Positions 26,607 through 56,295 of a stretch of DNA of 64,000 bases are shown here, piece after piece. This DNA comes from Candidatus Omnitrophota bacterium. GTDB taxonomy: Bacteria > Omnitrophota > Gorgyraeia > Zapsychrales > JANLHA01. The notes beneath the pieces were generated by a model. It made no database searches. It had not been told where the DNA came from and saw nothing but the letters and a program-made list of their open reading frames with translations. Position 1 is the first letter of the stretch; each line of letters begins with the position of its first letter. The position numbers were made by a program, and so were the translations under genes. The DNA lies in assembly GCA_031423615.1 (NCBI GenBank), contig JANPFV010000106.1:29-64028 (forward strand), given 5' to 3'.

Positions 26607-26613
26607 GGAAACC

Positions 26614-31484: not shown

Positions 31485-31508
31485 GGGAGTGTTTTTCTAA
31501 ATAACGGC

Positions 31509-32736: not shown

Positions 32737-33225
32737 ATGGACACCTTTCTTTCGATTGCTCCGGATGTCAAATTGGGCGCCAATGTCAAATTGGCAAAAT
32801 TTATCAACCTCTATGGCTGCACTATCGGCGATAACTCTAAAATCGGGACTTTTGTTGAAATTCAAAAAAATGCAAGCATTGGCAAGAATTGCAAAATCTC
32901 CTCTCACACTTTTATTTGCGAGGGAATTACGATCGGCGACAACTGCTTTATCGGGCATGCCGTCATTTTTGTTAATGATAACCACCCGCGGGCAGTCAAT
33001 TCCAATGGCGAGTTAGAGACACAAAAGGATTGGGCTCACCGTTTTGCCACAACCGTGATCGAATCTCATGTTTCGATTGGGAGCAATGCCACGATTTTGG
33101 CCAATGTGCGCATTGGGGCCGGCGCCATGATCGGAGCCGGAAGTGTCGTTACGAAAAATATCCCGGCTGGCGAAATTTGGGCGGGAAACCCAGCTCGTTT
33201 GATAGGCCAACGAACAGACGTATGA
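32737..33225 (+). CDS. hexapeptide-repeat (left-handed beta-helix) sugar N-acetyltransferase
   Basis: repeated [LIV]GxNxxI hexapeptides across 162 aa. Confidence 0.8.
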   Translation: MDTFLSIAPDVKLGANVKLAKFINLYGCTIGDNSKIGTFVEIQKNASIGKNCKISSHTFICEGITIGDNCFIGHAVIFVNDNHPRAVNSNGELETQKDWAHRFATTVIESHVSIGSNATILANVRIGAGAMIGAGSVVTKNIPAGEIWAGNPARLIGQRTDV

Positions 33226-33230
33226 AAAAA

Positions 33231-33683
33231 TCATGAATTTTTCTTATTTAATATAAATATTTTATAATTCAGCATCCCCAAAGCGGCGCAAATCGTGTCA
33301 AAGATGACGTCCAAAAGCTGAGGACTGCGCCCCGGCACAAAGGACTGGTGCCATTCATCCACACTCCCGCTTGCGAAAACGAGCACCGATAAAAATAAAA
33401 TCTTTACAAGGGTGACTCGACGGACTTCATGAGCATAAGCCCGCATTATTAAAATTCCCAAAATACTATACTCGATAAAATGAGCGATACGATGACCCCA
33501 AAACAAATATGTTTCTATCGGTATTTTGAAAAGAGGGTTATCCGCCGAGGACAAAATATTAAGGAGAAGAGAGGGCAGGGATGAAACCGTATCACCGCGG
33601 ACGGATGAAAACAAACAGATGCCGGCATACCACATCCCAACCGGCAACCACAATAAAATTCTTTCAGAGATCTTTTTATTCAT
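33231..33683 (-). CDS. VanZ-family membrane protein
   Basis: about 150 aa, 4 TM, VanZ-like pattern; start uncertain (ATG 33683 lacks clear SD). Confidence 0.5.
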   Translation of the reverse strand: MNKKISERILLWLPVGMWYAGICLFSSVRGDTVSSLPSLLLNILSSADNPLFKIPIETYLFWGHRIAHFIEYSILGILIMRAYAHEVRRVTLVKILFLSVLVFASGSVDEWHQSFVPGRSPQLLDVIFDTICAALGMLNYKIFILNKKNS

Positions 33684-33697
33684 TGGACAGTGCAATT

Positions 33698-34759
33698 TCA
33701 AACGGATTTTTGTTCTTTCGCTAAGTTTAAATTTTGTTGCCAGGTCCAGGCATGTTTTAAAGCCTCTTCGATCCTCCATGCGGGCTTCCAACCCAATTTG
33801 CGACGAGCTTTCCGCACATCAGCATAAATGATATCGATATCGCCCGTCCGGCGCGGTCCTATGACATAAGGGACTTCCCGGCGGGTCACCGTCTTAAATT
33901 TTTCAATCATTTCTAATACACTATAACCGCAGCCTGACCCTAAGTTTATGGCCTCATAAAAATTTTTCTTTTTTTGTTTATGCAAATATTCTAAAGCTTT
34001 GACATGGGCCTCTGCGATATCTAAAACGTGGGTATAATCACGCACCGATGTGCCGTCGGGTGTTTGATAGTCATTCCCCGCGACAACCAGTTTAGAACTC
34101 CCACCCCAAGCGGCTTCCATGATCAACGGCACAAGATTTTTAAAATTTCCTTTTGTATCTTCTCCAATTAATCCCGACGGATGCGCCCCCACAATGTTGA
34201 AATACCGTAAGGACACGGTTTTAATTTTTTCCCCGCGCAAAGTCATTCCCTGGAGAATCTGTTCGCTGATTTGCTTGGAATGGCCGTAGGGAGACTCCGC
34301 CTTGGCTAAAGACATTGTCTCCTGAACCGGCACTCGCGAAGGTTTTCCGTAAACCGTACAAGATGAGGAAAAAACAAAATATTGAATTTCTCTTCTAGTC
34401 ATCTCCTGAAGAACCGTTGTCAAGGCTCCGACATTGTTCCGGTAATACATTAACGGGTGGGCGATAGACTCAGCGACCGATTTATGAGCGGCGAAATGAA
34501 TGACCGCCGAGACTGATTTTTCTTTTTCAAGCACTCCCGAGAGAAATTCACTGTCACAGCAATCCCCTTCATAAACCGACAAAGGCCGCTTTATTAATTT
34601 CCGCAGTCCTTTAAGAATGTTTTTATCCGCATTGATAAAATTGTCCACAATAATGGGGGTGTATCCAGCCTCAGCCAAAAGACCAACAGCATGAGATCCG
34701 CAGTATCCCGCTCCCCCGGTTACCAAAACTTTATTTCGTGAAGCCAACACTTTTGACAA
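33698..34759 (-). CDS. galE: UDP-glucose 4-epimerase
   Basis: VLVTGGAGYCGSH, YxxxK (YGHSK), 353 aa, extended-SDR GalE pattern. Confidence 0.85.
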   Translation of the reverse strand: MSKVLASRNKVLVTGGAGYCGSHAVGLLAEAGYTPIIVDNFINADKNILKGLRKLIKRPLSVYEGDCCDSEFLSGVLEKEKSVSAVIHFAAHKSVAESIAHPLMYYRNNVGALTTVLQEMTRREIQYFVFSSSCTVYGKPSRVPVQETMSLAKAESPYGHSKQISEQILQGMTLRGEKIKTVSLRYFNIVGAHPSGLIGEDTKGNFKNLVPLIMEAAWGGSSKLVVAGNDYQTPDGTSVRDYTHVLDIAEAHVKALEYLHKQKKKNFYEAINLGSGCGYSVLEMIEKFKTVTRREVPYVIGPRRTGDIDIIYADVRKARRKLGWKPAWRIEEALKHAWTWQQNLNLAKEQKSV

Positions 34760-34806
34760 TTTTCAAACCTCGTTTTTTAAAGAATCGCGCCTTCTTTACC
34801 GACTTT

Positions 34807-36273
34807 TCAATTTTTCTGACTTAAAAGCGATTGCCTTACAAAGGCCGTCTTTTGAATAACTTCCTTTATAAATCCTGCCGTGCCCTTGTATTTCCATAAT
34901 TTAAAAATATACTGCAAAGCTAATGTGGGATGGCTAATAAACATTTTGGCCTTGCGGTATTGCGCATACGTCATGGCCTTGTAAACATCATTGTCCTTTA
35001 ATTGCGGATAGCTTAAGACGTAACTGGTGTTGGGTTCATAGCGGCTCCAGTCCATTGTCGTAAGCCAATTATTCTTTTTCGCTTCATCAAAGAATGCGGT
35101 TCCCGGCAGAGGCGTGGCCATCGAGACCTGAAAAGTGGTGAGACCACTCTCGGCGGCGAAATCAATGGTCCGCTTCATGGTTTCGGGGGTATCTTTTTGC
35201 AAGCCGATACAAAAAGCCCCCAGGGTCATCAGTCCGAGTTTCCGGCAATTGGCAATCAAGACTTCAATATCTTTGACCGGCTCCGGCTTATTGGCCCCCT
35301 TTCTCACTTCCTGATCGATCGACTCAATACCAAATTTTACGCCGATACATCCGCTGTGTTTCATAAGTTTCAATGTTTCATACGGTGTCCCCCAATGAAT
35401 CCAGCAATGCCAATTGACCTTAACTTTATTTTCGATCAAGGCTTCCGCTAACTTTTTGCCCCAGTCCGGCATAACAATAGGGTCATCAAAATAAATCTCT
35501 TCAATCCCATATTTTTCCTGCAACCGCCGAATTTCCGAAATAACCAAAGGCAAGGACCGGTGCTTATAACTGCGATTGTAATTGGCCGCCTCCACACAAA
35601 AACTGCATTTATAAGGGCACCCGCGCGAAACGGTAATTTTAGCGGTTTTACGTTTCTTGCTAAAAGGTTCGCTATAGCGCTCCATAGGCAACTGATCAGT
35701 TTCCGGGAATGGCAATTCATCAAGATTTTTGATGACATCCCGTCGCGGCGTGACAATGATGTCTTTTTCTTTTTTAAACGCCAGGCCTTTGATATTTTCG
35801 AAATCTGTTCTTCCCGCTTTTATAAATTCCGCCAATTCGCGCAAAGTATAATCCATTTCCCACATGACCACGAAATCAATAAAATCCTGAGCCAACATTT
35901 CCTCCGGCAGACCCGAAGCATGAATGCCGGCGCAGGCAATAACACTTTTTACACGCTGTTTGACGTTTTTCAAAAAATCAATATCCACATAAATTGACGG
36001 GGTAAATACTTCGCTGAGAATAAGATCGGGATTGACCTGCTCGACGTAATCTAAACATTGCTCCTTCGTTAATTCCTCAGCCACGGCGTCCTTAATAAAC
36101 ATTTCAAAACCCGCCTCTTTGATAATCGAAGCGGCATTTGCTAAAAAATAAGGATAGGGATAATAAGGCATAAAACGGTCTTTATTGCGCAGCGCTCCCC
36201 AGCGCGTTCCCGATTTGAGACCATATTGTGCTGGGGTGTTGATCCACGGCGAATTGAGCAGTAAGACTTTCAT
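34807..36273 (-). CDS. B12-binding domain radical SAM protein
   Basis: N-terminal cobalamin-binding domain, CPYKCSFC (CxxxCxxC) radical SAM motif. Confidence 0.85.
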   Translation of the reverse strand: MKVLLLNSPWINTPAQYGLKSGTRWGALRNKDRFMPYYPYPYFLANAASIIKEAGFEMFIKDAVAEELTKEQCLDYVEQVNPDLILSEVFTPSIYVDIDFLKNVKQRVKSVIACAGIHASGLPEEMLAQDFIDFVVMWEMDYTLRELAEFIKAGRTDFENIKGLAFKKEKDIIVTPRRDVIKNLDELPFPETDQLPMERYSEPFSKKRKTAKITVSRGCPYKCSFCVEAANYNRSYKHRSLPLVISEIRRLQEKYGIEEIYFDDPIVMPDWGKKLAEALIENKVKVNWHCWIHWGTPYETLKLMKHSGCIGVKFGIESIDQEVRKGANKPEPVKDIEVLIANCRKLGLMTLGAFCIGLQKDTPETMKRTIDFAAESGLTTFQVSMATPLPGTAFFDEAKKNNWLTTMDWSRYEPNTSYVLSYPQLKDNDVYKAMTYAQYRKAKMFISHPTLALQYIFKLWKYKGTAGFIKEVIQKTAFVRQSLLSQKN

Positions 36274-36274
36274 A

Positions 36275-37174
36275 TCATTCTCTTCTTACGGCAGTTAAAA
36301 AGATCCCGCTCCTGAATAAAAGCTTATTAATAAAAATCAACGGCGTATAAAAAATGATTTTTCCATCATAGAAAATATTATATTTCAGAATTCGCAAGGT
36401 CGTCATCAACGCCAAAGGAACAATTAAAAAGAAATGAATTAGCGGATTTGATAAAAGCCCATACCAATGACGAAACAGGACCGGATGATTTTTATAAAGT
36501 TTTAAACCGATATGCCGCCCATAAATAAAGTTTTTCTTAAACATCGCTTTGAGCGTCATAACACCGTGATGGTGGAAAACCGTGATCGCCGACGAATACA
36601 CGATCTTCTCCCCGCGGGTCACCAGTCTTAAAGCCAGATCTTGGTCTTCTCCCACGCGCATAAAATTGGCAAATCCTCCCAACTGATCAAAAGTTGTTCT
36701 AAAAATAGCCGCGCACGACGTATTAAAAAAATCTGTATGGCGCTTGTCGTCATTCATGACAAAACCATACAAACTGTATGCATGCACCCTTTCCACCAAG
36801 GAGGGCGACGATTGCAACCGTCCCGCCAGGGCTTTCACCCTCGGGTCCTTTTGATTCTCCGCCAATAAATTTTCCTGATAATCTTTAACCCAATTCTTGG
36901 GCACAACACAATCCGCATCGGTAAACATGAGAATATTTCCCCCACTGTGGGCCACACCGACATTCCTCGCTTGGGCCGGCCCTTGATTTTGGGATAAACG
37001 GATATATTTGCATAAAAAATCTTTCGCGACCAGGGCGATATCTTCCAAAGAATTATCATCGACCACAATCACTTCAAAATCTTGATAAGCCGTGTCATAA
37101 AGAGCGGTTAAACAGTTCAATAAATTCGCTCGGTCATTAAAAACAGGAATAATAACCGAGACAGCAATTACCAT
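36275..37174 (-). CDS. glycosyltransferase family 2
   Basis: VSVIIPVFND ... VVDDNS ... FTDADCV (DxD) GT-A motifs; start ATG 37174 with AAGGTTAAGGGA upstream. Confidence 0.8.
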   Translation of the reverse strand: MVIAVSVIIPVFNDRANLLNCLTALYDTAYQDFEVIVVDDNSLEDIALVAKDFLCKYIRLSQNQGPAQARNVGVAHSGGNILMFTDADCVVPKNWVKDYQENLLAENQKDPRVKALAGRLQSSPSLVERVHAYSLYGFVMNDDKRHTDFFNTSCAAIFRTTFDQLGGFANFMRVGEDQDLALRLVTRGEKIVYSSAITVFHHHGVMTLKAMFKKNFIYGRHIGLKLYKNHPVLFRHWYGLLSNPLIHFFLIVPLALMTTLRILKYNIFYDGKIIFYTPLIFINKLLFRSGIFLTAVRRE

Positions 37175-38094
37175 TCCCTTAACCTTGTAAAAAAATCCTG
37201 GACCGTAATAGCGTCGATGTCCCCCGAAATGCAAAAAGCGCCTCGGCAAGAACCCGGCCACCTGCCGGCAGGATTATTTTTATGCCACTGGGCTACGTCC
37301 CCTAGAGTGGTAATCCATATCGCCGGCTGCAAAGACTTGGCGTATTGGATCAATCCCATTAAGACTTCTTTGAGTTCAAGAAAACGTTCAGGGTGCAATT
37401 GAAGAACAAAAACTTCTTTATTGTCATGGCAAGTTTTTAACATCTGTTGCCACATCGGTCCGATGGCCGCAGAATTTAATCGTTCCCGGTCAAGAGTGAT
37501 ATCATCGTCAGGCAAAGAAACCGGGATTTCCGTCAAGGCGTCCGCATCATAAGGCAACGCTAAGCCTTTTGCATACGGTTGGGCTTTATAAAAATCTTGA
37601 ATCCATGAATAATATTTCTCACCCGGCCCATAAACATCCTCCCAAATAATCGATGCACTGCTGTCAAATTGGAAACGGCCCGCGGCTAGCAAAGCTTTTT
37701 TTGTGTGCTCATTAAATTTCAGATAGGGACAACGGAATCCTTTAAATCTGAAGTTGTATTTATCGAATATTTCAATCGCCTTGATTATTTGGGTCTTTTG
37801 CCGTTCATAAGCCAGCTGGGAATGATCGGTATGAACCAACCCATGAATACCCCACTCAATCGTTTCTTGATCAATGACCCTTAAATGAGACGCGTAGCGT
37901 TCCAACAATATGGCCGGAATAAAGAACGTTCCGCGGACTCCCTGGGCTTTTAGATAATCCGCGAACTGCAGGATAATATTCACTTGCTTGTAAGGAACAA
38001 AGGAAAAACGCCGCCCGATGCTGATAAAGCGCCGCAGCCATTTTGAAATACCCCGGGAAAAGAATAAAAATTTGACCCCGTGGACCTTGATCAT
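37168..38094 (-). CDS. polysaccharide deacetylase-like (CE4-fold) protein
   Basis: GTFFIPAILLERY, HGLVHTDHS motifs; 308 aa. Confidence 0.5.
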   Translation of the reverse strand: MIKVHGVKFLFFSRGISKWLRRFISIGRRFSFVPYKQVNIILQFADYLKAQGVRGTFFIPAILLERYASHLRVIDQETIEWGIHGLVHTDHSQLAYERQKTQIIKAIEIFDKYNFRFKGFRCPYLKFNEHTKKALLAAGRFQFDSSASIIWEDVYGPGEKYYSWIQDFYKAQPYAKGLALPYDADALTEIPVSLPDDDITLDRERLNSAAIGPMWQQMLKTCHDNKEVFVLQLHPERFLELKEVLMGLIQYAKSLQPAIWITTLGDVAQWHKNNPAGRWPGSCRGAFCISGDIDAITVQDFFTRLREW

Positions 38095-39113
38095 AACGCC
38101 CCTGTGCTTATTTTTTCAGCTGAAATCTCAGCCGCGACCATCGTACCCTTTATATTGGGATGGACCGATGCATCGAGAAATAATGGCTCCTGACGATGAG
38201 CAATAAAAGCGGGCAATAAATCAACATAATCAATGTTGTGGGCCTGCAAAAAAGATGTCATATCCTGCTGGATTTTATTGTCTTCTTCTTTACCATACAG
38301 TTGGATTTGATTGGGAAAAAGGACGACTAAAAACTTTTTGTGATGTCTTTGGCACTGCTCAGCGATATGTTTCAAAGTTTCTTTCATTTTGGACCAATTC
38401 TTTTCATAAACACGGGAATTGAGAAAAACATTAGCCTTGAATCGTTGGGCCAGCATCGGGTGATTATAAATCGTCCGTTTAAATAAGTATTTCATGTATA
38501 CAAAAAATCTCGATTGATTTAAAACCGCCCGCACATTCATATCCGAAACATTGCGGATAGGATTTTCAGCCAATAAAATCCCGTTTTTATCAATAATATT
38601 CGCCGGATCAGAATCGTTGGAACAAAATCCCAAAATTACTAAATCTGGCTGCAGATCAAAACCTTTCATTTTTAAAAAAGCCTCTTCCTGTTGGGTGTTA
38701 TACCCGGGAACGCCCATATTGATGACTTTAACATCCGGCCAGTTGTATTTATTCTTTAATAGCGTTTCCAACGAAACCGCATAGGTATCTTCCAGTGCAA
38801 GACCGAGACCGAAAATGATAGAGTCTCCCAAAACAATGATCCGCGCTTGGCCCGGCGGCTTAGGGGACTCGATCGGTTCCCCGCGCAAGCCGTTCTGATT
38901 AATAGAATAAAACTTATGTTGAGAAAGAGGTTTCAATTGATACCCTAAAAGGGAATGGGACGTCGGTTCTAAAAGGTCTTTATATTCGACATAAAAATTG
39001 GAAATCTGGAGCGCAAAAAGAATCCTCAAAACAATCTCAAAAACAAGAATAAAAACACTCAAGCTAAGCAAAACATACAAGAAAACTAGCTTTTTATCCT
39101 TATGAATGGCCAT
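38091..39113 (-). CDS. SGNH/GDSL hydrolase family protein, N-terminal membrane anchor
   Basis: IIVLGDSIIFG (GDS block I), later G and DxxH-type blocks; N-terminal TM. Confidence 0.7.
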   Translation of the reverse strand: MAIHKDKKLVFLYVLLSLSVFILVFEIVLRILFALQISNFYVEYKDLLEPTSHSLLGYQLKPLSQHKFYSINQNGLRGEPIESPKPPGQARIIVLGDSIIFGLGLALEDTYAVSLETLLKNKYNWPDVKVINMGVPGYNTQQEEAFLKMKGFDLQPDLVILGFCSNDSDPANIIDKNGILLAENPIRNVSDMNVRAVLNQSRFFVYMKYLFKRTIYNHPMLAQRFKANVFLNSRVYEKNWSKMKETLKHIAEQCQRHHKKFLVVLFPNQIQLYGKEEDNKIQQDMTSFLQAHNIDYVDLLPAFIAHRQEPLFLDASVHPNIKGTMVAAEISAEKISTGAL

Positions 39114-40605
39114 ACAAATTTTTTGATTTATTATGCGCGGTTGGTTTGTGCATTAAAATGATTCCCATCGCAGCGATAAATATAAAAGAATAGCTTAACG
39201 GGAGAATGTTAAAACCGTTTGATTCAAAAAAATTGTGGACGAATTGCCCCAGCAAGGCCGCCATGGCTCCGACGATTAAAGCAAAATTCAAACTGCCATC
39301 ATTGTGATGCGTTTTTATGAAAACAAGAAACGTCCGCAAATAGTTACCGTAAAACAAAAGAAAAACGATGGGAGCGGCCACTCCCATTTCAAAAGCATAA
39401 TTAAGAAAAACATTATGCGCATGAATGGTTTTTAAAACGCCGGTATTTCCTTCCACGAGAATCCTATTTAAAATATATTGTAAATCATGAACCGAGGGCG
39501 TAAGAAACCGCGAAAAGGATTCTTGCGGGAAGGTCCCCATCCCATGCCCCACCAGAGGATGTTCACCAATCAATGTGGTCGCATTCTGCCAAATAATATC
39601 ACGGTTTGAAAGCCCCGAGGAAAAACGTAAAAAAGCAACAACCGGACTTGAGAATACCGCTGTCATCAGGACCGCAAGTATAGCGCCATAAATTTTGATT
39701 CTTGTGGAAAGAGCTTTCCAATAAATAGCCAACAAAAACAAACTCGAAACAATCATGTTCATTAGCGATCCCCTTGAACCCGAAGAGAATATACCGAGGA
39801 CAACAATGCCAGCCGCACCAACAATGAAACAACGCCCCAGGACATTTCTTATGGAAGAAAGCATACTCAAAAAAACAGGCAAGCTAAGCGCCAGATAAGC
39901 TCCCAAATTGTTGGGATGAAAAAATGTGCCCGTACTGCGATAGCTGTCGGCAATTCCATTATTATTCGCAAATAATGCGAACCGGTGTATGCCCGGAATC
40001 ACATACGGCGTCAGACCAATGAAAACATGATGGACCATGATAGCGTACTGCAAAAGAGCCAGCAGAGCGTTGAGCAAAGAAAAACACAGGAATAAATAAA
40101 GGGCTTTTTTCAAATAGGCCTCGACCCGCAGAACGTCCAAAAAATAGTACATACTTAAAAAAACCGCCATATGAATGGCCAGCATTCGTGAGCTTTCCAC
40201 AATATCAAGAGAGCCGACCAAAGAAATAAGCATCAATAATGTAAAAAGGATAAAGAACAAATGGAATTCTTTAAATTGCAGGAAAGCCCATTTGTCTTTT
40301 TTTGTGGAAACCTGCAATTGAATAAACCAAATCAGGATACTTAAAAAAATCATTGATAACAGCGTCGGTTGAATCAATTCTCCCATTCCGGGAATGCGGG
40401 AAATGGGAGTCAGTATAATCAGAAAATAAATGGGCCATTGCGGGCGCGCAAAGGTGGCAACGACATAGACACCCAGAAAAAGAATGACGGCGACATTTTT
40501 TAAAGGAAAGCACAGCAGGCACGCACCCATGAAAATAATCCCCAGGGACCACAGTATTTCCCGGTTCATCTTCCAACCCGATAATGGCCATATGCTATTT
40601 ATCAT
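39100..40605 (-). CDS. O-antigen ligase/polymerase family (Wzy_C-type) integral membrane protein
   Basis: 501 aa, about 10-12 TM with large periplasmic loop typical of Wzy/WaaL superfamily. Confidence 0.6.
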   Translation of the reverse strand: MINSIWPLSGWKMNREILWSLGIIFMGACLLCFPLKNVAVILFLGVYVVATFARPQWPIYFLIILTPISRIPGMGELIQPTLLSMIFLSILIWFIQLQVSTKKDKWAFLQFKEFHLFFILFTLLMLISLVGSLDIVESSRMLAIHMAVFLSMYYFLDVLRVEAYLKKALYLFLCFSLLNALLALLQYAIMVHHVFIGLTPYVIPGIHRFALFANNNGIADSYRSTGTFFHPNNLGAYLALSLPVFLSMLSSIRNVLGRCFIVGAAGIVVLGIFSSGSRGSLMNMIVSSLFLLAIYWKALSTRIKIYGAILAVLMTAVFSSPVVAFLRFSSGLSNRDIIWQNATTLIGEHPLVGHGMGTFPQESFSRFLTPSVHDLQYILNRILVEGNTGVLKTIHAHNVFLNYAFEMGVAAPIVFLLFYGNYLRTFLVFIKTHHNDGSLNFALIVGAMAALLGQFVHNFFESNGFNILPLSYSFIFIAAMGIILMHKPTAHNKSKNLYGHS

Positions 40606-40606
40606 T

Positions 40607-41695: not shown

Positions 41696-42396
41696 TGGCG
41701 TAAGATCCCGGGTTTTCTTATGTCATAGATGTCTAAATAATATTTAAGGACCGGATCGGTCTTGGTAAAAAACTGATCGATGAATTTGTCCAGATTGGCA
41801 ATAAACGTTTTCGGCACAAAAACTATATCTGATGGCTCGACGGAGATATTACCCTTGGGGTCACCCTTCTTGACCAAATCCAAAAGATTAACCCGTATCA
41901 CCCGTGATTTTGCAGCATGTCCATATTTGATAACAATGATACTTTTAAGAGCGGCCGTATCATCCTTGTATCCTCCCGCCTTCGCTAAAACATCCAGCAC
42001 CCGCTCTTGCCCTTCAAAAGGATAAACGCCCGGTTGCCTGACCTCGCCTAAGACAAAGATTTTCTTGCTTTCAAAGCCAACCACATTGACTGTCACCTGC
42101 GGATCGCGGAGAATGCGGCCCAGCTTGGTGTCGAGTTGTTTTTTTAAATCTTGCGGCGTAATATTGCGGACATCTATTTCATCAACGAGTGGAAAAGCGA
42201 TTTTGCAATCGGGCCGGACCGTGACCTTCATATCCAGATCCGGATGGCGCCACACCTTGATCTCAATGGTGTCTCCCGGGCCAATTTGATAAGTGAATTC
42301 TCCTCGATAAACTTCATCGGCACCCGTGTCTTTAGGCTCTTGAGCAAAACAAACTCCCGAGGAGACGATCAACAATAAAAATAAAAAGTATCGCAT
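41692..42396 (-). CDS. polysaccharide biosynthesis/export protein (Wza-like Poly_export + SLBB domains)
   Basis: signal peptide, YQIGPGDTIEIKVW (Poly_export PES motif), SLBB-like repeat. Confidence 0.8.
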   Translation of the reverse strand: MRYFLFLLLIVSSGVCFAQEPKDTGADEVYRGEFTYQIGPGDTIEIKVWRHPDLDMKVTVRPDCKIAFPLVDEIDVRNITPQDLKKQLDTKLGRILRDPQVTVNVVGFESKKIFVLGEVRQPGVYPFEGQERVLDVLAKAGGYKDDTAALKSIIVIKYGHAAKSRVIRVNLLDLVKKGDPKGNISVEPSDIVFVPKTFIANLDKFIDQFFTKTDPVLKYYLDIYDIRKPGILRQ

Positions 42397-44021
42397 CAGG
42401 GATTCCCCTCAATTAAGACAACGGTTATGTCTCCGTAGCGTTGTGTAAAACCATCCGCCTGCTGGTATTCAACACCTGCAGCTATGCTCACATAACCCGG
42501 AGTCGATGGAGAAAATTCAATGACCGCTTGTCCCTTTTCATCAGTCTTCAAATCCCCGGTCTGATTGTCCCAACCAATAGCTTGGAATATTGCGGATTTG
42601 ACAGTTTGTCCCTCGAGCGGATGACCGAAAGCATCTTTGACGCTGACGGTCACCCCAACTTTTTCATTTACTTTATATTTCGTCTGGGCGGCCCGGAGCA
42701 TCACCTTATAAGGGGCATTTTCCGCAAGCTTTCCTACCCAAATATCCCGGCCTTTTGAGGTAAGTATCTTCTTGGCATTATCTAAGGCTTTGATTTCCAG
42801 ATGATGTTTCCCGTCCGCTAATTCGGAAATATTTATTTCCCCTTGCCACCACAGACTCCCATTCTTTTTTAAACGGCCCCACGGCTGTTCATCCAATTTA
42901 TATTGCACGGCTTGCACCTTTTCCGTTGCATAGACGGCCAGGGGTAAAACCTTTGAATAAAAATGAGTGTTCTGAGGTTCAATAATCAGAGCTTGATTAT
43001 ATTTTTTAAGGGCCTCCCCTGCGGGCCGGGCAACAGCTTTACCGTTTTTATCATACTCCGTTATTCCATACCATTTTTCCGGATTATCATCTTCATGGGC
43101 TTGTTTATTTCCGGAAAGCCACCAAGAATCATTCCATAGAAAAACACAGGCGCCCGTTGCCGCACTTTGAATAATGTCGTCATACATCTGAACATCTCCT
43201 TGGGCTTGCTCAGCCATGCTGTTACCGCCATATCCAAAGAAATGGGCGATGGGCTCACCTTTGCGCGTCGGTGAGATGGACAGTCCAAATTCAGTAATAA
43301 TTAATGGCTTGTCCACCGCGAGATTTTGTTTAAGCCATTGAATATATCCTTGATATCCCAAGGCATGGGTAATAAGGCTGGGTGAATAAATGTAGGCGTT
43401 AAATCCTATGAAATCCAAAAATGAATGGTCCAAAAATCCCAAAGGGACCCAGTTCGCAAAGGATACGGGTTTTGAGGCATCAACGGTTTTAACATATTGG
43501 GTCAATCGTTTTAAAAATTCTTCCGTCGGGGCTTGCCCGGCATCACGTACACGTTTGACAGGCGGTTCATTTAAGAACAAATATCCCAAAACATTATCAA
43601 ATTCTTTGGCCCATACCAAATCTTTATTTAAAAGGGTTTGGGCATACGTCAAAGTCTCAGGACGGCGGTAATCTTTTTCCTTATCAAACCAAATCCCGTG
43701 CAATATAAACAAACCGTGCTTTTGCGCCAGCGTCTCAATTTCGGGAGTCAAAGCTCCGGCCGTTCGGATCGTATTAAAACCCGCTTCTTTGATCAAACGG
43801 AAATCATCATCGACTAAATCCAGATTGACTTTGTCGTGGTCACCCGGAGATTGGCCGGGCCGATAAGCCTGATAATTGACCCCTTTAATAAAAAACTTTT
43901 CTCCGTTAACATAAAACCAATCCCCTTTGATCTCGACGGGATTTCCCGCAAAAGCCGGAACGCCCCATAATAGAAAAACCATATTTATAAGCCCTATTTT
44001 TAAATTTGACGTTTTGATCAT
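42396..44021 (-). CDS. secreted glycoside hydrolase, clan GH-A TIM barrel (GH5-like) with C-terminal Ig-like domain
   Basis: signal peptide; LFLNEPP (acid/base NEP) and LIITEFG (nucleophile TE) motifs; C-terminal about 100 aa beta-sandwich. Confidence 0.6.
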   Translation of the reverse strand: MIKTSNLKIGLINMVFLLWGVPAFAGNPVEIKGDWFYVNGEKFFIKGVNYQAYRPGQSPGDHDKVNLDLVDDDFRLIKEAGFNTIRTAGALTPEIETLAQKHGLFILHGIWFDKEKDYRRPETLTYAQTLLNKDLVWAKEFDNVLGYLFLNEPPVKRVRDAGQAPTEEFLKRLTQYVKTVDASKPVSFANWVPLGFLDHSFLDFIGFNAYIYSPSLITHALGYQGYIQWLKQNLAVDKPLIITEFGLSISPTRKGEPIAHFFGYGGNSMAEQAQGDVQMYDDIIQSAATGACVFLWNDSWWLSGNKQAHEDDNPEKWYGITEYDKNGKAVARPAGEALKKYNQALIIEPQNTHFYSKVLPLAVYATEKVQAVQYKLDEQPWGRLKKNGSLWWQGEINISELADGKHHLEIKALDNAKKILTSKGRDIWVGKLAENAPYKVMLRAAQTKYKVNEKVGVTVSVKDAFGHPLEGQTVKSAIFQAIGWDNQTGDLKTDEKGQAVIEFSPSTPGYVSIAAGVEYQQADGFTQRYGDITVVLIEGNP

Positions 44022-44047
44022 TTTTTCCCCTTTTCGGTAATGGCTTC

Positions 44048-44593
44048 CTAATCAATAAAAAGTGAATTCCATTTTTCGATCTGTTGAAGGAGTTGCTGAT
44101 AAGATTCCTCGATACTTTGCTGTTCGGTGGCAATTGTAATCTCTGCCCCGACGGGCGCTTCATAAGGGTCATCAAGACCGGTAAAATATAAAATTTGTCC
44201 GGAGCGCGCTTTTTTGTAAAGTCCCTTAGGATCGCGGCGTTCACATTCCTGCAAAGACGCGGAAACAAACACTTCGATAAAATGCTCACACATATTGCGA
44301 ACCACATGACGGGCTTCGCTATAGGGAGATATGAATGAAGCAATCACAATCACCCCATGCTTTTCCAATAAAGACGCAATAAATCCCATTCGCTTGATAT
44401 GTTCATCCCGGTCCTCTTTGGTAAAACTTGTTTGCGGAAATATCGAGCGCACTTTATCTCCGTCGAGATGTTCCACCTGAAAACCCTGCCCCGTATAGAA
44501 GGCATATAATTTCTCGGCCAAAGTACTTTTGCCGGCCCCGGATAATCCCGTGAGCCAGACCACAAAACCTTTGGGCGGTACGCTTTTAACCAT
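44048..44593 (-). CDS. cysC: adenylyl-sulfate (APS) kinase
   Basis: VVWLTGLSGAGKSTLA P-loop, DGDxxR, full-length collinearity with CysC (181 aa). Confidence 0.9.
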   Translation of the reverse strand: MVKSVPPKGFVVWLTGLSGAGKSTLAEKLYAFYTGQGFQVEHLDGDKVRSIFPQTSFTKEDRDEHIKRMGFIASLLEKHGVIVIASFISPYSEARHVVRNMCEHFIEVFVSASLQECERRDPKGLYKKARSGQILYFTGLDDPYEAPVGAEITIATEQQSIEESYQQLLQQIEKWNSLFID

Positions 44594-45245
44594 GGCGCAC
44601 TCTCAGCGATCCTGCGCTGCTTTTGTTATCACACGGAAAAGACGACGAGACTGTTGAAAAACCCAGAAAGGGGCACAATTTTTCCCAGCCATCCCCGCGG
44701 CACACATTCATAATCAATAAATCCTGGGGTCTTTTATTAAAATACGCTTTTACATTTTTATATTTTTCTAAATGCTCGGCTATGATTTGTTTTTGCATCT
44801 CTTTGTAATTTCTTATTAAAAAAGCAGGCGGAATACCGCTGGCATTGATGTCGGCGGAGAAATATTTTTCATGACTTATACTCCACTCATCTAAGTCCCG
44901 CTCCAAAAGAATAAATTTGCTGCCCGGAAAACGCCGGTCCAATTCCTGATAAAGATCAAAGTCGTGCCACGGGCCGTCGACAAAAGTATCAAACATATTT
45001 GCGACTTCAAAAGTTTCCGTAAAATCGCCTCTTTTGCATTGTTCATAGAGATAAGGGTCCCATCCCTTGCGGGTAAGGGCCAACTTTTTAAAAGCATTGC
45101 CCAGTGACGTGGTCCCTGTTTTGGGTGATCCCACTTCAAAAATTTTATTAAATGTTCTTTGACCCCGGGGCCGATGAAAGGGATCAAAATGAGCCACCTG
45201 CTTGCAAAGGCGCAAATGCTCGATTAAAAATGTTTTCAACTTCAT
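44586..45245 (-). CDS. sulfotransferase family protein (PAPS-dependent)
   Basis: 5'-PSB-like loop GSPKTGTTSL; about 219 aa; overlaps cysC start by 8 nt. Confidence 0.65.
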   Translation of the reverse strand: MKLKTFLIEHLRLCKQVAHFDPFHRPRGQRTFNKIFEVGSPKTGTTSLGNAFKKLALTRKGWDPYLYEQCKRGDFTETFEVANMFDTFVDGPWHDFDLYQELDRRFPGSKFILLERDLDEWSISHEKYFSADINASGIPPAFLIRNYKEMQKQIIAEHLEKYKNVKAYFNKRPQDLLIMNVCRGDGWEKLCPFLGFSTVSSSFPCDNKSSAGSLRVRHG

Positions 45246-46246
45246 AACGCAATCCTTTGTCCGCCATTCTTCAAAGAAAGGTCGGACGCTTCAAGCCATT
45301 TGACAACCCTTAAACCGGCCTGACCGTTGTTCAGCGGTTCCGTTCCCGTGTTAATGCAGTGCACAAAATATTTTGCTTCCTCCTCCAGCGCCTCTTTTCT
45401 CACGATATGCGGAGAGAGGACATCCCCGACACGATAATCGACAAGAATGTCCCGCCTATTATCCGAAGTTTTGATATCCACCCCGGCATCATAAATCTTT
45501 ATCTTTTCATCCGCTTCCACATCATCCCAAACCAGCATTTTTTTCTGCCCGCTTAACAAGATCTGGCGAATTTTCAAAGGGGCCAGCCAATTGAGCCGGA
45601 TTTGCGCAACAAAATTATCCGGATAATACAAAAAAATTGAGGCTAAATTGATTCTCCCCGTCTCAAAGTGATCCACGCCCTGCGAGCTGATCGCCAGAGG
45701 TTTTTCGGCAATCAAATAATCCAGAATCGAAAAATCGTGCGGCGCCAAATCCCAGATCACGTCCACATCATCTTGAAAAGCCCCCAAACGGATCCGGGTC
45801 GAATCATAATAAAAAAGTTTTCCCAAAGTTTCTTCCGCCAGGACTTTTTTAATGCATTTGATGGCGCCCGTAAATAAAAAGGTGTGATCAACCATGATCT
45901 TAAGATTTTTTCTTTGCGCCAAATCAACCAGGATTTGCGCTTGTTTGACTGATAAGGTCAATGGCTTTTCAACAAAAATATGTTTGCCATTTTCCAAGGC
46001 CTCGTGGGCTATCGTAAAATGCGATGAAACCGGGGTGGCAATGAGGACAGCATCAATGTCCGGGGCCTGAATAATATCCCGGTAATTTTTCGTCACCTTG
46101 ACAAAAGAATAACTTTGTTTGGCCTTGGCTAAGTTTTCCTCGACTAAATCACAAATAGTCATGATGACGCATCCGGGCGTGGCGTTAAAATTTCTCACCA
46201 AATTGGGACCCCAATAACCATATCCGATGACACCCAATCTTATCAT
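45242..46246 (-). CDS. Gfo/Idh/MocA-family NAD(P)-dependent sugar oxidoreductase
   Basis: IRLGVIGYGYWGPN Rossmann, EKPL motif; start ATG 46246 with GAGGGGG SD. Confidence 0.8.
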   Translation of the reverse strand: MIRLGVIGYGYWGPNLVRNFNATPGCVIMTICDLVEENLAKAKQSYSFVKVTKNYRDIIQAPDIDAVLIATPVSSHFTIAHEALENGKHIFVEKPLTLSVKQAQILVDLAQRKNLKIMVDHTFLFTGAIKCIKKVLAEETLGKLFYYDSTRIRLGAFQDDVDVIWDLAPHDFSILDYLIAEKPLAISSQGVDHFETGRINLASIFLYYPDNFVAQIRLNWLAPLKIRQILLSGQKKMLVWDDVEADEKIKIYDAGVDIKTSDNRRDILVDYRVGDVLSPHIVRKEALEEEAKYFVHCINTGTEPLNNGQAGLRVVKWLEASDLSLKNGGQRIAL

Positions 46247-46250
46247 AAGA

Positions 46251-47078
46251 TTAAGTCTGCCCCCTCTTATGTTGCCCCAAGGCCATCGCCAAGCCATGTT
46301 TATTGAAAAAATACAAAATATTAAGAATATGAACAATGCTCAATTTCCCGAATTTCTTAACACTGTCTCGCCGGTAGTAATGAACCGCATGAACTTCGGG
46401 GATGTAGTAGACTTTTAATCCATTGATCCGCGCCCGGAAACACCATTCCACATCTTCCAGATAAAAGGGCTGAAAAAGTTTGTAATCTAAACCGCCGATC
46501 TTTTCAATAGCGGATCTTCTCATTAAAAATAAAGCCGAAAGCACCCAGTCCACCGACCGGGTTGTCTTGTGATCGTAGTCCTTCATCAGATATTTCTGCA
46601 CGGTGGAACTATTGGATATTTTCTTGCCGGACTTGATCCAACGAAAGAAATGCGGCAAACGGTTGAAATAAATCAAGGGGGTGGGAAACTGCCGGCAGGT
46701 CAACTGCAAAGTCCCGTCCTCAAAAACCAATTTAGAACTGCTCACCGCGGCATCAGGGTTTTTTTCCATAAAATCAATCATGTAGGCCATGGTGTTGGGC
46801 ATCAATTCGATGTCCGAGTTAAGCAGCAGCACATAGCGCCCGCGGCAATTATTTGTGGCTTCGATATTGTTGTGGATATAACCCAATTTCTTTTCATTGC
46901 GCCTCAATATCACTTCGGGAAAATCCTGAGCAACCATGTGTGCCGTCCCATCCGTTGAAGCATTATCGACGACAATGGTCTCTATAGAATATACAGTTTG
47001 TGACCGCCGTATGGATTCCAGACATTTCTTTAAATGATGCTTTTCATTTGTTCCAACGACAATAATAGACACATCCAC
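46251..47078 (-). CDS. glycosyltransferase family 2
   Basis: VSIIVVGTNE...VVDNASTDGT...LNSDIEL GT-A motifs. Confidence 0.8.
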   Translation of the reverse strand: MDVSIIVVGTNEKHHLKKCLESIRRSQTVYSIETIVVDNASTDGTAHMVAQDFPEVILRRNEKKLGYIHNNIEATNNCRGRYVLLLNSDIELMPNTMAYMIDFMEKNPDAAVSSSKLVFEDGTLQLTCRQFPTPLIYFNRLPHFFRWIKSGKKISNSSTVQKYLMKDYDHKTTRSVDWVLSALFLMRRSAIEKIGGLDYKLFQPFYLEDVEWCFRARINGLKVYYIPEVHAVHYYRRDSVKKFGKLSIVHILNILYFFNKHGLAMALGQHKRGQT

Positions 47079-47105
47079 AGCGTTCTCCTGGATTTTAAGG
47101 ACAGT

Positions 47106-48164
47106 TCACATGCAAATGACCCTGTACCGGCACGACCAGTACAGGCGTCCATAATATTCCGACAATTCCCTTACCGCATATATAAAAAAAGCGGTGATGG
47201 TTTCTTTCCCGGTTAAGGTTGATCCTTTTTTTTGGACTTCTTTTCTGATCTTAAAACAATAATAAAGGCACGCTGACAAAAACATCACCAACAAGAAAGT
47301 CGGCGATATCCAGGCACTGACCGACAGCGCGACGATCAAAAATAGAACTTTTAAAACATTGGTCATCAACACCATCGTCAGGCCCATGTTATTGCGCCAA
47401 TGATAATAATTTCGCGGTAGACAAATAAAAACTTGCCCCCGGAAATGCCTGTCGATATTCACTACCAACCCGCGAGCATAAGAAAATTCCCGTTTGACCA
47501 AAGATCGAAGAGGGATATCTTGCAAGTGATAAACAGCCATGGGAGCATGCCACGCCATGATTTTTCCGCCCGCCTCCACCGCCCGCAGGGTAATATCGAC
47601 GTCCTCACCGGCGATGAATGTTTCATCAAAACCATTAATTTTTCTAAAAAACGCCTTACGGAAAGCGCAGTTAAAGGAAATGATGACTTTTTGATCAAAG
47701 TAATCTTTCTTTCGCTGGATCAGAGATTCCGGAATGTGATACGAAGCCAGCCAAAAAGCCGATAAAAATTTCCCCATAACGGTAGTTGGAGCAAAGGATA
47801 TGACATTCACACCTCCCATGCCGTCTAAATCGTCATCTTTGCTAAAAGCCTGTTTAATACTGCACACCCAAGAAGGAGTCGGGACACAATCCGAATCTGT
47901 AAAAGCCACAATGTCACCCGTGGCCAGAAAAGCCCCTTTATTTCTTGCGGCCGATGGCCCTTTTTTAACTTCGTTGCAAAGAATAATGTTAAGACCAGGA
48001 AATTGTTTCATCGCCTCTTGCACAGTCACCTGGCTTTGATCGGTCGAGTTGTTGTCTACCATAATGACTTCTTCCGGTAACACATCCTGTTCCGCCAAGG
48101 CGTGGATGCATTTTAAAATCGTCTTTGACGCATTAAACATCGGGATCACGACGGATATTTTCAT
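47106..48164 (-). CDS. glycosyltransferase family 2 with C-terminal transmembrane segments
   Basis: KISVVIPMFN...MVDNNSTD...FTDSDCV; 3-4 C-terminal TM helices. Confidence 0.75.
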   Translation of the reverse strand: MKISVVIPMFNASKTILKCIHALAEQDVLPEEVIMVDNNSTDQSQVTVQEAMKQFPGLNIILCNEVKKGPSAARNKGAFLATGDIVAFTDSDCVPTPSWVCSIKQAFSKDDDLDGMGGVNVISFAPTTVMGKFLSAFWLASYHIPESLIQRKKDYFDQKVIISFNCAFRKAFFRKINGFDETFIAGEDVDITLRAVEAGGKIMAWHAPMAVYHLQDIPLRSLVKREFSYARGLVVNIDRHFRGQVFICLPRNYYHWRNNMGLTMVLMTNVLKVLFLIVALSVSAWISPTFLLVMFLSACLYYCFKIRKEVQKKGSTLTGKETITAFFIYAVRELSEYYGRLYWSCRYRVICM

Positions 48165-49420
48165 ATTTTCGCTTCCGACGGTAAAACCGTACGCTTCACA
48201 AAGTGCAGATGGATAAAAGCCAGACAGATCAGAGTCAGAATATCGGCGTAAGCCATCCCCAAGGTCCCCCATTCTTTGACAAAAACAATACTCAGGACAA
48301 AAAATAATGGCAAACCGATCATCAACGCCACAACATCTTTATTCTGCTGATTGGCGGCTATAAGAAATCGGGACCATAAAAAGGAAAGACTCAACGGAAC
48401 AATTTTCCATATCAAAACCTGAATAAACTTTACTGTCGGAAGAAAGGCCGCACCTAAAAAAAGATTGATCAACGTATGCGCCAAAAAATAGACCGACGTG
48501 GCGATCGAAAAACTTACGATCAACATCAAAAAAGACAATCTGGCGAAATAAGAATATATCATTTTATGATTTTTATGTAGAGTTTCAACAATGGTCGGGA
48601 AAGAGGCTGAAACCATGCTGAATATCAAAATGAAACTGACCCGCAGTATCTTTTTTGTCACATTATAGAATCCCACATCCTCAACCGAAACCAACTTTGA
48701 CAAAATGACAACATCGACTTCTAACAGCAGATTGCTCAAAAGATTAATAAGAAAAAAAGCCGGGATCAGCCCCAGTATTTCTTTAAACTTAAAGACCTGA
48801 AAATCCCCCCACCATGAAATCTTTTCCTGTTGTAAAAGATAAGCCAGGAAAACGACACCGACCATTCTCGAGACAATAAAAGCCCCGATAACCGCATTGA
48901 TGTCGTGGCTGAGACTTAACCACCACACGCCCAACACCAACCAGGCCGTCTCTCTGACCAAGGCGGTATAAAAAGCAAATCTCGCTTTTTTTAATCCGAT
49001 AAAAATATTTTCTCCCAATACATTTAAGAAACAGGGAAATAAAACCAGGCTACTCAAATAAACAGATTTCATTATAAGGGGCGAATAATTCAAAATGTTT
49101 CCTATGATCGCCATTAATACTGCACCGACGGCACAGGAAAGCACTCCCAGTAAAATGCCATTCTTTATGAGCCAGCTTCCTTGATCTTGGTCCTTGCCGA
49201 TTTCGCGAATGACAATGGTGTCGTAGCCTAAAATAGATAAATATTGAAATATCGTGCATAAAGCCATGGCCACGGAAAACAAACCCAATGGACCGGGGCC
49301 CAAATTTCTGGCTATAAAAATGGTAATGATTAAGGAAGAACAGGAAAGACTCATGCGAGTCAACAAAATCGAAAAACTATTTTCAAAGAAGGATCCGGAA
49401 TGGATTTTAGGAATGATCAT
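48161..49420 (-). CDS. oligosaccharide flippase (Wzx, MOP/PST family)
   Basis: 419 aa, about 12 TM, polysaccharide-biosynthesis-protein pattern. Confidence 0.7.
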   Translation of the reverse strand: MIIPKIHSGSFFENSFSILLTRMSLSCSSLIITIFIARNLGPGPLGLFSVAMALCTIFQYLSILGYDTIVIREIGKDQDQGSWLIKNGILLGVLSCAVGAVLMAIIGNILNYSPLIMKSVYLSSLVLFPCFLNVLGENIFIGLKKARFAFYTALVRETAWLVLGVWWLSLSHDINAVIGAFIVSRMVGVVFLAYLLQQEKISWWGDFQVFKFKEILGLIPAFFLINLLSNLLLEVDVVILSKLVSVEDVGFYNVTKKILRVSFILIFSMVSASFPTIVETLHKNHKMIYSYFARLSFLMLIVSFSIATSVYFLAHTLINLFLGAAFLPTVKFIQVLIWKIVPLSLSFLWSRFLIAANQQNKDVVALMIGLPLFFVLSIVFVKEWGTLGMAYADILTLICLAFIHLHFVKRTVLPSEAKI

Positions 49421-49438
49421 GCCTTTCTCAAATATTCT

Positions 49439-50083
49439 TTAAGGTTTTCGTGCAATCCCGCATAAAAGCGAAATGGTTTTAAGAATGATTTTAAAATCCA
49501 ACAGCAAAGACCAGTGATCCACATAGTACAAATCCATAGTGACCATGTTCTTATAATCTATGGAACGCCCGCTATTGATTTGCCACAGACCGGTCAGACC
49601 CGACTTGACGTTAAATCTTCTGAGCATATTTTGATTATGATATTTGATTTCATAATCAATGGCGGGCCGGGGGCCCACAAAACTCATGTCGCCTTTTACA
49701 ACATTCCATATTTGCGGCAATTCATCAAGCTTAAACTTTCTTAAAATTCTTCCGCATCGGGTGATCCGTTTCACATTTATTTTTTCATAAACAATGATAC
49801 TGGCTTGTTTTTGTTCTTTGTCTTGCGTCATCAACTGCTCGATCAACTTTCTATGTATCGACTCATCGTTATAGCAATACATAGATCTGAATTTATAACA
49901 TTCAAATTGGCGTTGGTTTTGTCCGACTCTCATCTGTTTAAAAAAAACCGGTCCCCGAGAATCTAATTTTATAGCGACAGCAATCAAAACAAATACCGGC
50001 CACAAAAGCATCAACAGTATAAGGCCCAAACACCAATCAAAGACTTTCTTAATAACTAATTGAATAGATAAATAATTCTTCAT
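49439..50083 (-). CDS. initiating undecaprenyl-phosphate sugar phosphotransferase (bacterial sugar transferase, PglC/WbaP-C type)
   Basis: single N-terminal TM, GPVFFKQMRVG, KFRSM, DELPQ, VGPRP motifs. Confidence 0.85.
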   Translation of the reverse strand: MKNYLSIQLVIKKVFDWCLGLILLMLLWPVFVLIAVAIKLDSRGPVFFKQMRVGQNQRQFECYKFRSMYCYNDESIHRKLIEQLMTQDKEQKQASIIVYEKINVKRITRCGRILRKFKLDELPQIWNVVKGDMSFVGPRPAIDYEIKYHNQNMLRRFNVKSGLTGLWQINSGRSIDYKNMVTMDLYYVDHWSLLLDFKIILKTISLLCGIARKP

Positions 50084-51046: not shown

Positions 51047-51059
51047 GTTTTCTTTGAGA

Positions 51060-56292: not shown

Positions 56293-56295
56293 AGG

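Follow-up and report, generated by a model that had tools for sequence, protein, structure and literature searches.

Genes for the synthesis of 3'-phosphoadenosine 5'-phosphosulfate (PAPS) occur together with sulfotransferase genes in the capsule clusters of Vibrio sp. KMM 8419 and Cobetia marina KMM 1449, for which sulfate has been verified chemically, and this combination has been described by the authors as a hallmark of sulfated polysaccharide synthesis (PMC11641403, PMC11766843). A 64-kb stretch of DNA from a Candidatus Omnitrophota bacterium (contig JANPFV010000106.1, positions 29 to 64,028; hereafter the window) carries a polysaccharide operon in which the gene of a predicted PAPS-dependent sulfotransferase (44586-45245, minus strand) overlaps cysC, the gene of an adenosine 5'-phosphosulfate (APS) kinase (44048-44593, minus strand). 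It is proposed here, with a probability of roughly 0.6, that the polymer made by this operon is sulfated by the sulfotransferase in a PAPS-dependent, cytoplasmic reaction on the lipid-linked repeat unit before flipping. That a glycan is the acceptor we infer from the gene context, and the sulfate is presumed to be retained in the final polymer. The Vibrio and Cobetia clusters, both from Gammaproteobacteria, comprise 70-80 genes and rely on an ABC transporter (kps), whereas the window locus is a compact 17-kb Wzx/Wzy operon of Omnitrophota. Moreover, they include a full cysDN(C) set, with or without cysQ, whereas cysC is the only PAPS biosynthesis gene to occur in the window cluster.

The xss cluster for synechan in Synechocystis PCC 6803 is, like the window locus, a Wzx/Wzy-type exopolysaccharide (EPS) cluster with sulfotransferases, and the model given for it has sulfate added to the repeat unit at the cytoplasmic face, ahead of flipping (PMC8205485). 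As described there, the gene of the outer-membrane polysaccharide export (OPX) protein lies elsewhere and XssQRS regulators are present, whereas the window locus includes its own OPX gene and shows no regulator. The searched text of the synechan paper makes no mention of a PAPS gene, and the cyanobacterial survey that it reports used PF00685, PF03567 and PF13469, not PF17784 (PMC8205485). Pontiella sulfatireligans F21 shares with the window a link to the Planctomycetes-Verrucomicrobia-Chlamydiae (PVC) superphylum and a sulfotransferase located among glycosyltransferase genes of families GT2 and GT4; in that organism, a sulfated exopolymer was detected experimentally and is reported to be 75-80% N-sulfated (PMC7356697). 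The Pontiella sulfotransferases carry PF13469 and come from a cultured marine anaerobe, whereas the window protein is a Sulfotransfer_4 member of an uncultured organism; here too, no PAPS gene is mentioned in the searched text (PMC7356697). Since loci for sulfated capsules and EPS with PAPS genes and sulfotransferases are already on record from Vibrio, Cobetia, Synechocystis and Pontiella (PMC11641403, PMC11766843, PMC8205485, PMC7356697), the case for their rarity is weaker than had been claimed in the initial annotation of this DNA.

An APS kinase as the only PAPS helper appears workable, because the cluster-encoded CysC of saccharomicin biosynthesis, Sam35, has been shown to be functional: deletion of this kinase lowers sulfation by Sam10 (PMC13291958). 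Sam10 itself modifies the completed oligosaccharide but not TDP-fucose (PMC13291958), in keeping with the order of events proposed here. Like the window pair, Sam10 and Sam35 are a sulfotransferase and an APS kinase only, in a cluster without CysDN (PMC13291958). They serve an actinobacterial secondary-metabolite glycoside and their genes were not reported as overlapping, whereas the window genes overlap and would serve a putative exported polymer.

The sulfotransferase (219 aa) matches the Pfam family Sulfotransfer_4 (PF17784; E = 1.1e-20), scoring 74.8 bits against a cut-off of 22.8, and no matching model was found in NCBIfam. The enzyme is predicted to be PAPS-dependent, as the initial annotation had supposed, but its family is not Sulfotransfer_1 or Sulfotransfer_3, for which searches had been suggested. 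The loop GSPKTGTTSL, previously read as resembling the 5'-phosphosulfate-binding (5'-PSB) loop for PAPS, is indeed located at residues 39-48. In an alignment of 38 homologs, residues K42, T43, G44 and T45 of the loop (G39-S-P-K42-T-G-T-T46) are each at least 90% conserved, as is D90, and the 3'-phosphate-binding (3'-PB) residues R116 and S124 (LLERDLDEWSIS) are invariant. The segment bearing R116 and S124 aligns with TVRDxxxWxxS of solved sulfotransferases, and the 5'-PSB loop is in register with GFGRTGT of Cpz8 and SgdX2 and with GLPRTGT of the Schistosoma sulfotransferase (SULT). A profile made from the homolog alignment matches SgdX2 best (E = 2.9e-19), followed by Cpz8 (E = 5.8e-19) and the Schistosoma oxamniquine sulfotransferases (about E = 1e-17), with the motifs G-x-x-R/K-T-G-T and T-V/I-R-D-x-x-x-W-x-x-S in register.

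Structure comparison gives the same enzymes. The AlphaFold (AF2) model of the sulfotransferase has a mean predicted local distance difference test score (pLDDT) of 89.5 and a predicted template modelling score (pTM) of 0.82, and its top Foldseek match is Cpz8 with bound 3'-phosphoadenosine 5'-phosphate (PAP; E = 1.9e-9, template modelling score 0.63-0.65), followed by SgdX2 and then by the Schistosoma enzymes; adenylate kinases are much weaker matches. Cpz8 (9kf2), SgdX2 (8y9p) and the Schistosoma enzyme SULT-OR (4mua, 5tiv) share with the window protein the fold, the 5'-PSB, the 3'-PB and an acidic residue near the acceptor. They differ from it in sequence (18-25% identity) and in their small-molecule acceptors, whereas the window protein carries an additional predicted helix of about 33 residues at its N-terminus and is encoded in a glycan operon. 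From its position in the alignment, where it coincides with the Asp of a T-D-L-P segment, D90 is probably the equivalent of Asp91 of the Schistosoma sulfotransferase, which hydrogen-bonds the acceptor hydroxyl (PMC4618941). No stated catalytic base was found in the literature on the Schistosoma enzyme, just this hydrogen bond. Profile and structure comparison together indicate that the PAPS-binding residues are retained in the 219-aa protein, both in the 5'-PSB (K42-T-G-T) and in the 3'-PB (R116...S124).

The best profile match, SgdX2, which is also the third Foldseek hit, is described as an 'activating sulfotransferase', and the operon contains redox and radical enzymes (Gfo/Idh/MocA and B12-radical SAM). 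It could accordingly be imagined that sulfation is an activating step of the SgdX2/CurM type, with sulfate as a leaving group that is eliminated or displaced to give an unusual sugar, so that the final polymer is unsulfated. This seems very improbable: there is no recognisable elimination partner beside the sulfotransferase, the dedicated CysC suggests a stoichiometric, high-flux use of PAPS, and sulfate is retained in known polysaccharide clusters with PAPS genes (PMC11641403, PMC11766843, PMC8205485).

A hydropathy scan finds no transmembrane segment in the sulfotransferase, which is predicted to be soluble and cytoplasmic. PAPS is both made and used in the cytoplasm. Sulfation would therefore take place on a nucleotide sugar or, more likely, on the undecaprenyl diphosphate-linked unit before flipping. 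The N-terminal extension (residues 1-33, window 45147-45245, minus strand) is predicted to be helical, with a pLDDT of 60-73, and is missing from most of 37 aligned homologs; it may be a membrane- or partner-docking element.

The start of the sulfotransferase gene overlaps the stop of the upstream Gfo/Idh/MocA gene by 4 nt (ATGA), and at its other end the gene shares exactly 8 nt (ATGGTTAA) with the start of cysC, the value given in the initial annotation. These overlaps of 4 and 8 nt suggest that the oxidoreductase, the sulfotransferase and CysC are co-translated in fixed proportion. The CysC protein (181 aa) matches Pfam APS_kinase (E = 2.5e-54) and the equivalog-domain model TIGR00455 (apsK), with 196.5 bits against a cut-off of 138.7. 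It contains the P-loop GLSGAGKST, LDGD, SFISPY and DPKGLYKKAR; the P-loop, LDGD, SFISPY and KGLYKKAR are canonical CysC motifs. It has no hydrophobic segment in the hydropathy scan, and by profile and motifs it is predicted to be a bona fide APS kinase.

A Pfam scan of every open reading frame (ORF) of at least 150 aa in the 64-kb window revealed no ATP sulfurylase (sat), CysD/N, PAPS/APS reductase (cysH) or CysQ. Within the window, cysC is thus not part of a cysDNC/cysH assimilatory operon and is coupled to the sulfotransferase instead. The surroundings of related cysC genes were surveyed in the 80 closest metagenome loci (42-62% identity), using crude longest-ORF calls and immediate neighbours only. 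ATP sulfurylase (15) and its PUA_2 domain (16) are the commonest among the 106 ORFs adjoining cysC, in which PAPS_reduct and Sulfotransfer_3 are each found three times. The window cysC departs from this commonest context, being coupled to a sulfotransferase and not partnered by ATP sulfurylase. Phosphodiest (PF01663), a phosphodiesterase or nucleotide pyrophosphatase family, adjoins cysC nearly as frequently as ATP sulfurylase (13/106; loci L087-L166), and this pairing is recurrent.

Since the window cysC encodes a standard APS kinase whose closest relatives lie mostly in sat-cysC contexts of assimilatory type, and since it is the single cysC visible in 64 kb, it might be a housekeeping gene for assimilation via PAPS reductase, located here by chance and not dedicated to donor supply. 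Its 8-nt overlap with the sulfotransferase gene inside a non-syntenic polysaccharide island of lower G+C, and the lack of an adjacent sat, cysH or sulfite reductase gene, make this distinctly unlikely. Moreover, a sole copy would still feed PAPS to the adjacent enzyme, so that a sulfated polymer remains compatible even with a housekeeping role.

Relatives of the sulfotransferase are widespread, with at least 551 among species-representative genomes of many phyla. The context of the best 80 genome loci was surveyed with the same crude ORF calls and restriction to immediate neighbours. GT2 ranks first among the 133 adjoining ORFs (10), followed by Sulfotransfer_3 (9), Sulfotransfer_1 (6) and then GT1/GT4-type domains; the remainder are mostly heterogeneous. 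The eight closest homologs show 49-60% identity, and five of them are found among epimerase, glycosyltransferase, methyltransferase, radical SAM or export genes, one in a locus with PEP-CTERM, Bac_transf, Poly_export and B12-radical-SAM genes that is much like the window locus. The link of Sulfotransfer_4 with glycan assembly is recurrent, not universal, and tight coupling to cysC is rare.

Two of the 80 loci have an APS kinase within 10 kb of the sulfotransferase homolog, and both independently join PAPS genes, Sulfotransfer_4 and glycan genes. The first (L078, 2097-12272), from the Patescibacteria-group metagenome-assembled genome (MAG) JAHJAU010000038 of a reduced-genome lineage, encodes a PUA_2, ATP-sulfurylase and APS-kinase fusion protein together with two Sulfotransfer_4 proteins, two Wzx-like proteins, GT2 enzymes and FkbM methyltransferases. 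The second (L003, 742-13701), from the Brocadiaceae MAG CAYMPV010000041, combines a cysC-like ORF with genes for UDP-glucose dehydrogenase, two epimerases, three GT4 enzymes, a Sulfotransfer_4 protein and a radical SAM-SPASM-TPR protein. Sulfated glycosaminoglycan-like polymers have been reported from anammox granules (cited in PMC7356697), and L003 may be relevant to these polymers.

Several observations weigh against sulfation of the polymer. Among the relatives found, those with known biochemistry (Cpz8, SgdX2 and the Schistosoma SULT) all use small molecules and not glycans as acceptors; three of the eight closest homologs lie outside glycan contexts, and genes without a link to glycans form the majority of those adjoining the 80 genome homologs. 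No ATP sulfurylase, which is needed to supply APS, was seen within the 64-kb window. Conservation of the cysC-sulfotransferase pair among relatives, to which the initial annotation looked for support, is not observed: apart from the two loci just described, none of the 80 sulfotransferase loci has an APS kinase within 10 kb, and no Sulfotransfer_4 homolog was seen within 10 kb in any of the 80 closest cysC loci. Finally, both relatives described below lack the locus at the corresponding position, so that its function gains no support from conservation. The known acceptors and the mixed contexts would suit an enzyme acting on a lipid, a small metabolite or a peptide, in which case the polysaccharide would be unsulfated and the gene pair would merely ride along with the operon. 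This is nevertheless considered rather unlikely. The sulfotransferase gene is translationally coupled on both sides within a 17-gene polysaccharide operon, Pfam scans reveal no gene of an alternative acceptor pathway in the locus, and glycan genes and further sulfotransferases dominate the homolog contexts wherever these can be identified.

The operon itself was defined by an ORF map combined with Pfam and NCBIfam scans of the window. Its 17 genes are all on the minus strand and run uninterrupted from 50083 to 33231, with gaps of at most 47 nt and many overlapping neighbours. The same gene content and order is found at 99-100% identity in a 24-kb Logan contig from SRR20217181, an independent assembly. 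Every gene listed in the initial annotation was recovered in place, and all but Wzz score above their Pfam cut-offs; the GT2 genes number three, however, and not four, with two between wzx and the Gfo/Idh/MocA gene and one before the radical SAM gene. The tRNA and Rfam scans of the window gave no matches, and promoter and terminator scans at the locus were near shuffled expectation (44 versus 38 and 34 versus 22, respectively).

As far as can be judged from these matches, the locus is a Wzx/Wzy-type polysaccharide assembly and export set that is complete on one strand. A small PglC-type initiating polyprenyl-phosphate glycosyl-1-phosphate transferase (49439-50083, minus strand as for all genes of the run; 214 aa) would prime undecaprenyl phosphate. 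It matches Pfam Bac_transf (E = 5.4e-65), has hydrophobic segments at its N-terminus, and is covered by NCBIfam EPS_sugtrans (E = 2.8e-77) just over its C-terminal catalytic domain. Three GT2 enzymes are expected to lengthen the repeat unit at the cytoplasmic face, all of which match Glycos_transf_2: the first (47106-48164; E = 7.7e-30), whose longest ORF reaches 48272 and whose likely start gives 352 aa, as in the independent Logan gene call; the second (46251-47078; E = 2e-23); and the third (36275-37261; E = 6.6e-28), with a true start probably downstream of 37261. At this stage the coupled CysC would turn APS, formed by an ATP sulfurylase encoded elsewhere, into PAPS, raising its local supply, and the Sulfotransfer_4 enzyme would move sulfate from PAPS onto the lipid-linked oligosaccharide.

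The sulfated unit would then be flipped by Wzx (48161-49420; about 12 hydrophobic segments), identified by Polysacc_synt (E = 2e-18), Polysacc_synt_3 and MatE, polymerised by Wzy (39100-40605; about 13 hydrophobic segments) with length control by Wzz (40607-41695), and exported by a short Wza. The Wzz-type polysaccharide co-polymerase, which has no kinase domain, was tentatively assigned from NCBIfam matches and topology: Pfam Wzz scores 22.6, below the cut-off of 25.5, and pepcterm_ChnLen (E = 4e-17) and Wzc (E = 2.6e-12) are both far below their family cut-offs, while its two transmembrane segments, one at each end, fit the topology of Wzz. The Wza-type OPX protein (41692-42396; 234 aa) matches Poly_export (E = 1.5e-22) and SLBB and has a signal-peptide-like N-terminus; this short form may need a separate outer-membrane partner or barrel. 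A VanZ-like membrane protein (33231-33791; Pfam VanZ, E = 9.9e-13) is encoded by the final gene of the run. An XrtA/PEP-CTERM system was considered and rejected, with pepcterm_export at 140.6 against 180, pepcterm_ChnLen at 61.6 against 278.9 and EpsB_2 at 163 against 393; no exosortase was detected by Pfam among the window ORFs of at least 150 aa.

The nature of the exported product leaves some room for another reading. The Wzy-type protein is above the Pfam cut-off for Wzy_C (E = 1.7e-12), a domain common to Wzy polymerases and WaaL-type ligases, and loci for protein glycosylation or O-antigen synthesis commonly contain small initiating transferases of the PglC type. The product could thus be a capsule, an O-antigen-like lipopolysaccharide chain or a protein-linked glycan and not free EPS, with the Wzy_C protein as a ligase. 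The presence in the operon of a Wza-type OPX protein and a Wzz-type co-polymerase, which typify capsule and EPS export and not O-antigen ligation, together with the lack of an oligosaccharyltransferase in the locus, gives this a low probability. Capsule and released EPS are indistinguishable from sequence.

Supply and remodelling of precursors would involve five further proteins. The Gfo/Idh/MocA NAD-dependent sugar oxidoreductase (45242-46162; 306 aa in the Logan call) matches GFO_IDH_MocA (E = 7e-27), and its relatives in the Protein Data Bank are uncharacterised oxidoreductases. Its best NCBIfam match is UDP-GlcNAc 3-dehydrogenase (E = 6e-44), but this WbpB-type assignment was not adopted, the score being 150.7 against a cut-off of 450 and the locus lacking an aminotransferase. 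The B12-binding radical SAM enzyme (34807-36273; Pfam B12-binding and Radical_SAM) is HpnJ-like (E = 1.8e-68, below the cut-off), with AprD4 as its nearest solved structure (E = 6e-21); it has a counterpart in the EPS locus of the sulfotransferase homolog P0017. The UDP-glucose 4-epimerase GalE (33698-34759) reaches 371 bits with TIGR01179 against a cut-off of 262. The carbohydrate esterase family 4 (CE4) polysaccharide deacetylase (37168-38094) matches Polysacc_deac_1 (E = 4e-11), and a hexapeptide-repeat acyltransferase (32737-33225, plus strand; Hexapep, E = 5.8e-26) is encoded convergently with the operon end. The acyltransferase gene sits in the variable region and is presumed to belong to the pathway.

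Outside the cytoplasm, the polymer would be trimmed or modified by a secreted hydrolase and an anchored SGNH protein, and by likeness to hydrolases in other EPS operons it is plausible that both are periplasmic or extracellular processing enzymes. The hydrolase (42396-44021; 541 aa) appears to be a glycoside hydrolase in which a TIM barrel of clan GH-A precedes an Ig-like domain at the C-terminus, and it has a signal-peptide-like N-terminus (...VPAFA|GNP). The earlier label of a co-located GH5 enzyme was rejected: the Pfam matches are to Big_1 and, weakly, to Glyco_hydro_72 and Glyco_hydro_2_C of clan GH-A, and the top solved relative, 9fz9 (E = 2.8e-57, residues 28-438), bears the name 'GH2 catalytic domain-containing protein', so that membership of GH5 is not demonstrated. 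Three solved relatives of this name (9fz9, 9g5g and 9g4n) are apparently unpublished, and a literature search found no paper for any of them. The SGNH/GDSL hydrolase or acyl-transferase-like protein (38091-39113) matches Lipase_GDSL_2 (E = 2.6e-13) and weakly ALGX, and its one hydrophobic segment, at the N-terminus, suggests that it is membrane-anchored.

The PAPS-dependent O-sulfation of the repeat unit put forward by the initial annotation is supported by the intact motifs as regards PAPS dependence, whereas the 'O-' was only assumed. N-sulfation is possible because the CE4 deacetylase is apparently cytoplasmic, a crude hydropathy scan having found neither a hydrophobic segment nor a detectable signal peptide. 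An N-acetyl-hexosamine of the lipid-linked unit would then be deacetylated and subsequently N-sulfated, and the CE4 and Sulfotransfer_4 proteins would be a split bacterial counterpart of the eukaryotic N-deacetylase/N-sulfotransferase, giving a heparan-like N-sulfo-hexosamine polymer. This more specific proposal is unlikely. If true, it would provide the first prokaryotic glycosaminoglycan-type N-sulfotransferase and a glycan function for the widespread Sulfotransfer_4 family (more than 550 matches in species-representative genomes).

In its genomic setting, the locus behaves like a variable surface-polysaccharide island, because synteny ends at its border and its G+C content is lower (0.426 versus 0.468 for the rest of the window). 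For release factor 3 (RF3; prfC, 29889-31484), the top named matches (75-79% identity) come from Candidatus Omnitrophota, and a contig with an 86% identical RF3 carries the depositors' label Omnitrophota. Two relatives whose RF3 is 86-89% identical keep genes of window 16547-32522 at 59-89% amino acid identity, namely those of a DEAD helicase, a short-chain dehydrogenase, peptidase U32, GHL10, RF3 and a short pyruvate kinase; a GT4 enzyme and a 773-aa protein are additionally kept in one of them. Synteny ends exactly at the pyruvate kinase gene (31509-32522), past which the relatives have GGDEF-EAL, ABC_sub_bind, RNase II and epimerase genes and no polysaccharide locus. The hexapeptide acyltransferase gene is missing from both. 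A literature search combining Omnitrophota and sulfotransferase found nothing relevant.

Other features of the window were noted. The pyruvate kinase (minus strand; 337 aa) consists of the barrel domain alone, without the C-terminal domain, and this short form (318-340 aa) also lies beside prfC in the two Omnitrophota relatives. The 773-aa ORF (17923-20244, minus strand) has no Pfam match, is 77% identical in one relative, and adjoins the GT4 glycosyltransferase gene both there and in the window. Just downstream of prfC and outside the polysaccharide locus, the GHL10 glycoside-hydrolase-like gene and a second CE4 gene (27975-29958, minus strand) are found; GHL10 is kept in the relatives at about 60% identity, the second CE4 gene is not. 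On the other side of the operon, 50537-59161 (minus strand) holds a nitrate-assimilation-like cluster with a MOSC protein, a NasA-like molybdopterin oxidoreductase, a major facilitator superfamily (MFS) transporter, an unusual protein of 558 aa that joins a 4Fe-4S dicluster domain to a DmsC-type membrane anchor, and a NirB-like reductase of 837 aa (56648-59161), followed by a PAS-LuxR regulator (59409-60272). The NirB-like protein with the molybdopterin oxidoreductase and the MFS transporter looks like nitrate assimilation. Finally, a trehalose-phosphatase gene is directly followed by a GH15 trehalase-like gene at 6941-9637 (plus strand).

Sulfation of polysaccharides through PAPS genes and sulfotransferases is a concept already established experimentally in other bacteria, and the locus adds a member and not a new kind of system. 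What is new is the host phylum, the use of a sulfotransferase family that had no earlier connection with glycans, and the unusually compact, translationally coupled form in which these known elements are brought together. A 17-kb operon with its own APS kinase is a practical candidate for the heterologous production of sulfated polysaccharides, which is of current biotechnological interest. If the proposed sulfation is true, it would constitute the first glycan-directed assignment for Sulfotransfer_4, so far characterised only on small molecules, and would add Omnitrophota, a phylum that is related to the PVC group and largely uncultured, to the bacteria with sulfated surface polysaccharides.

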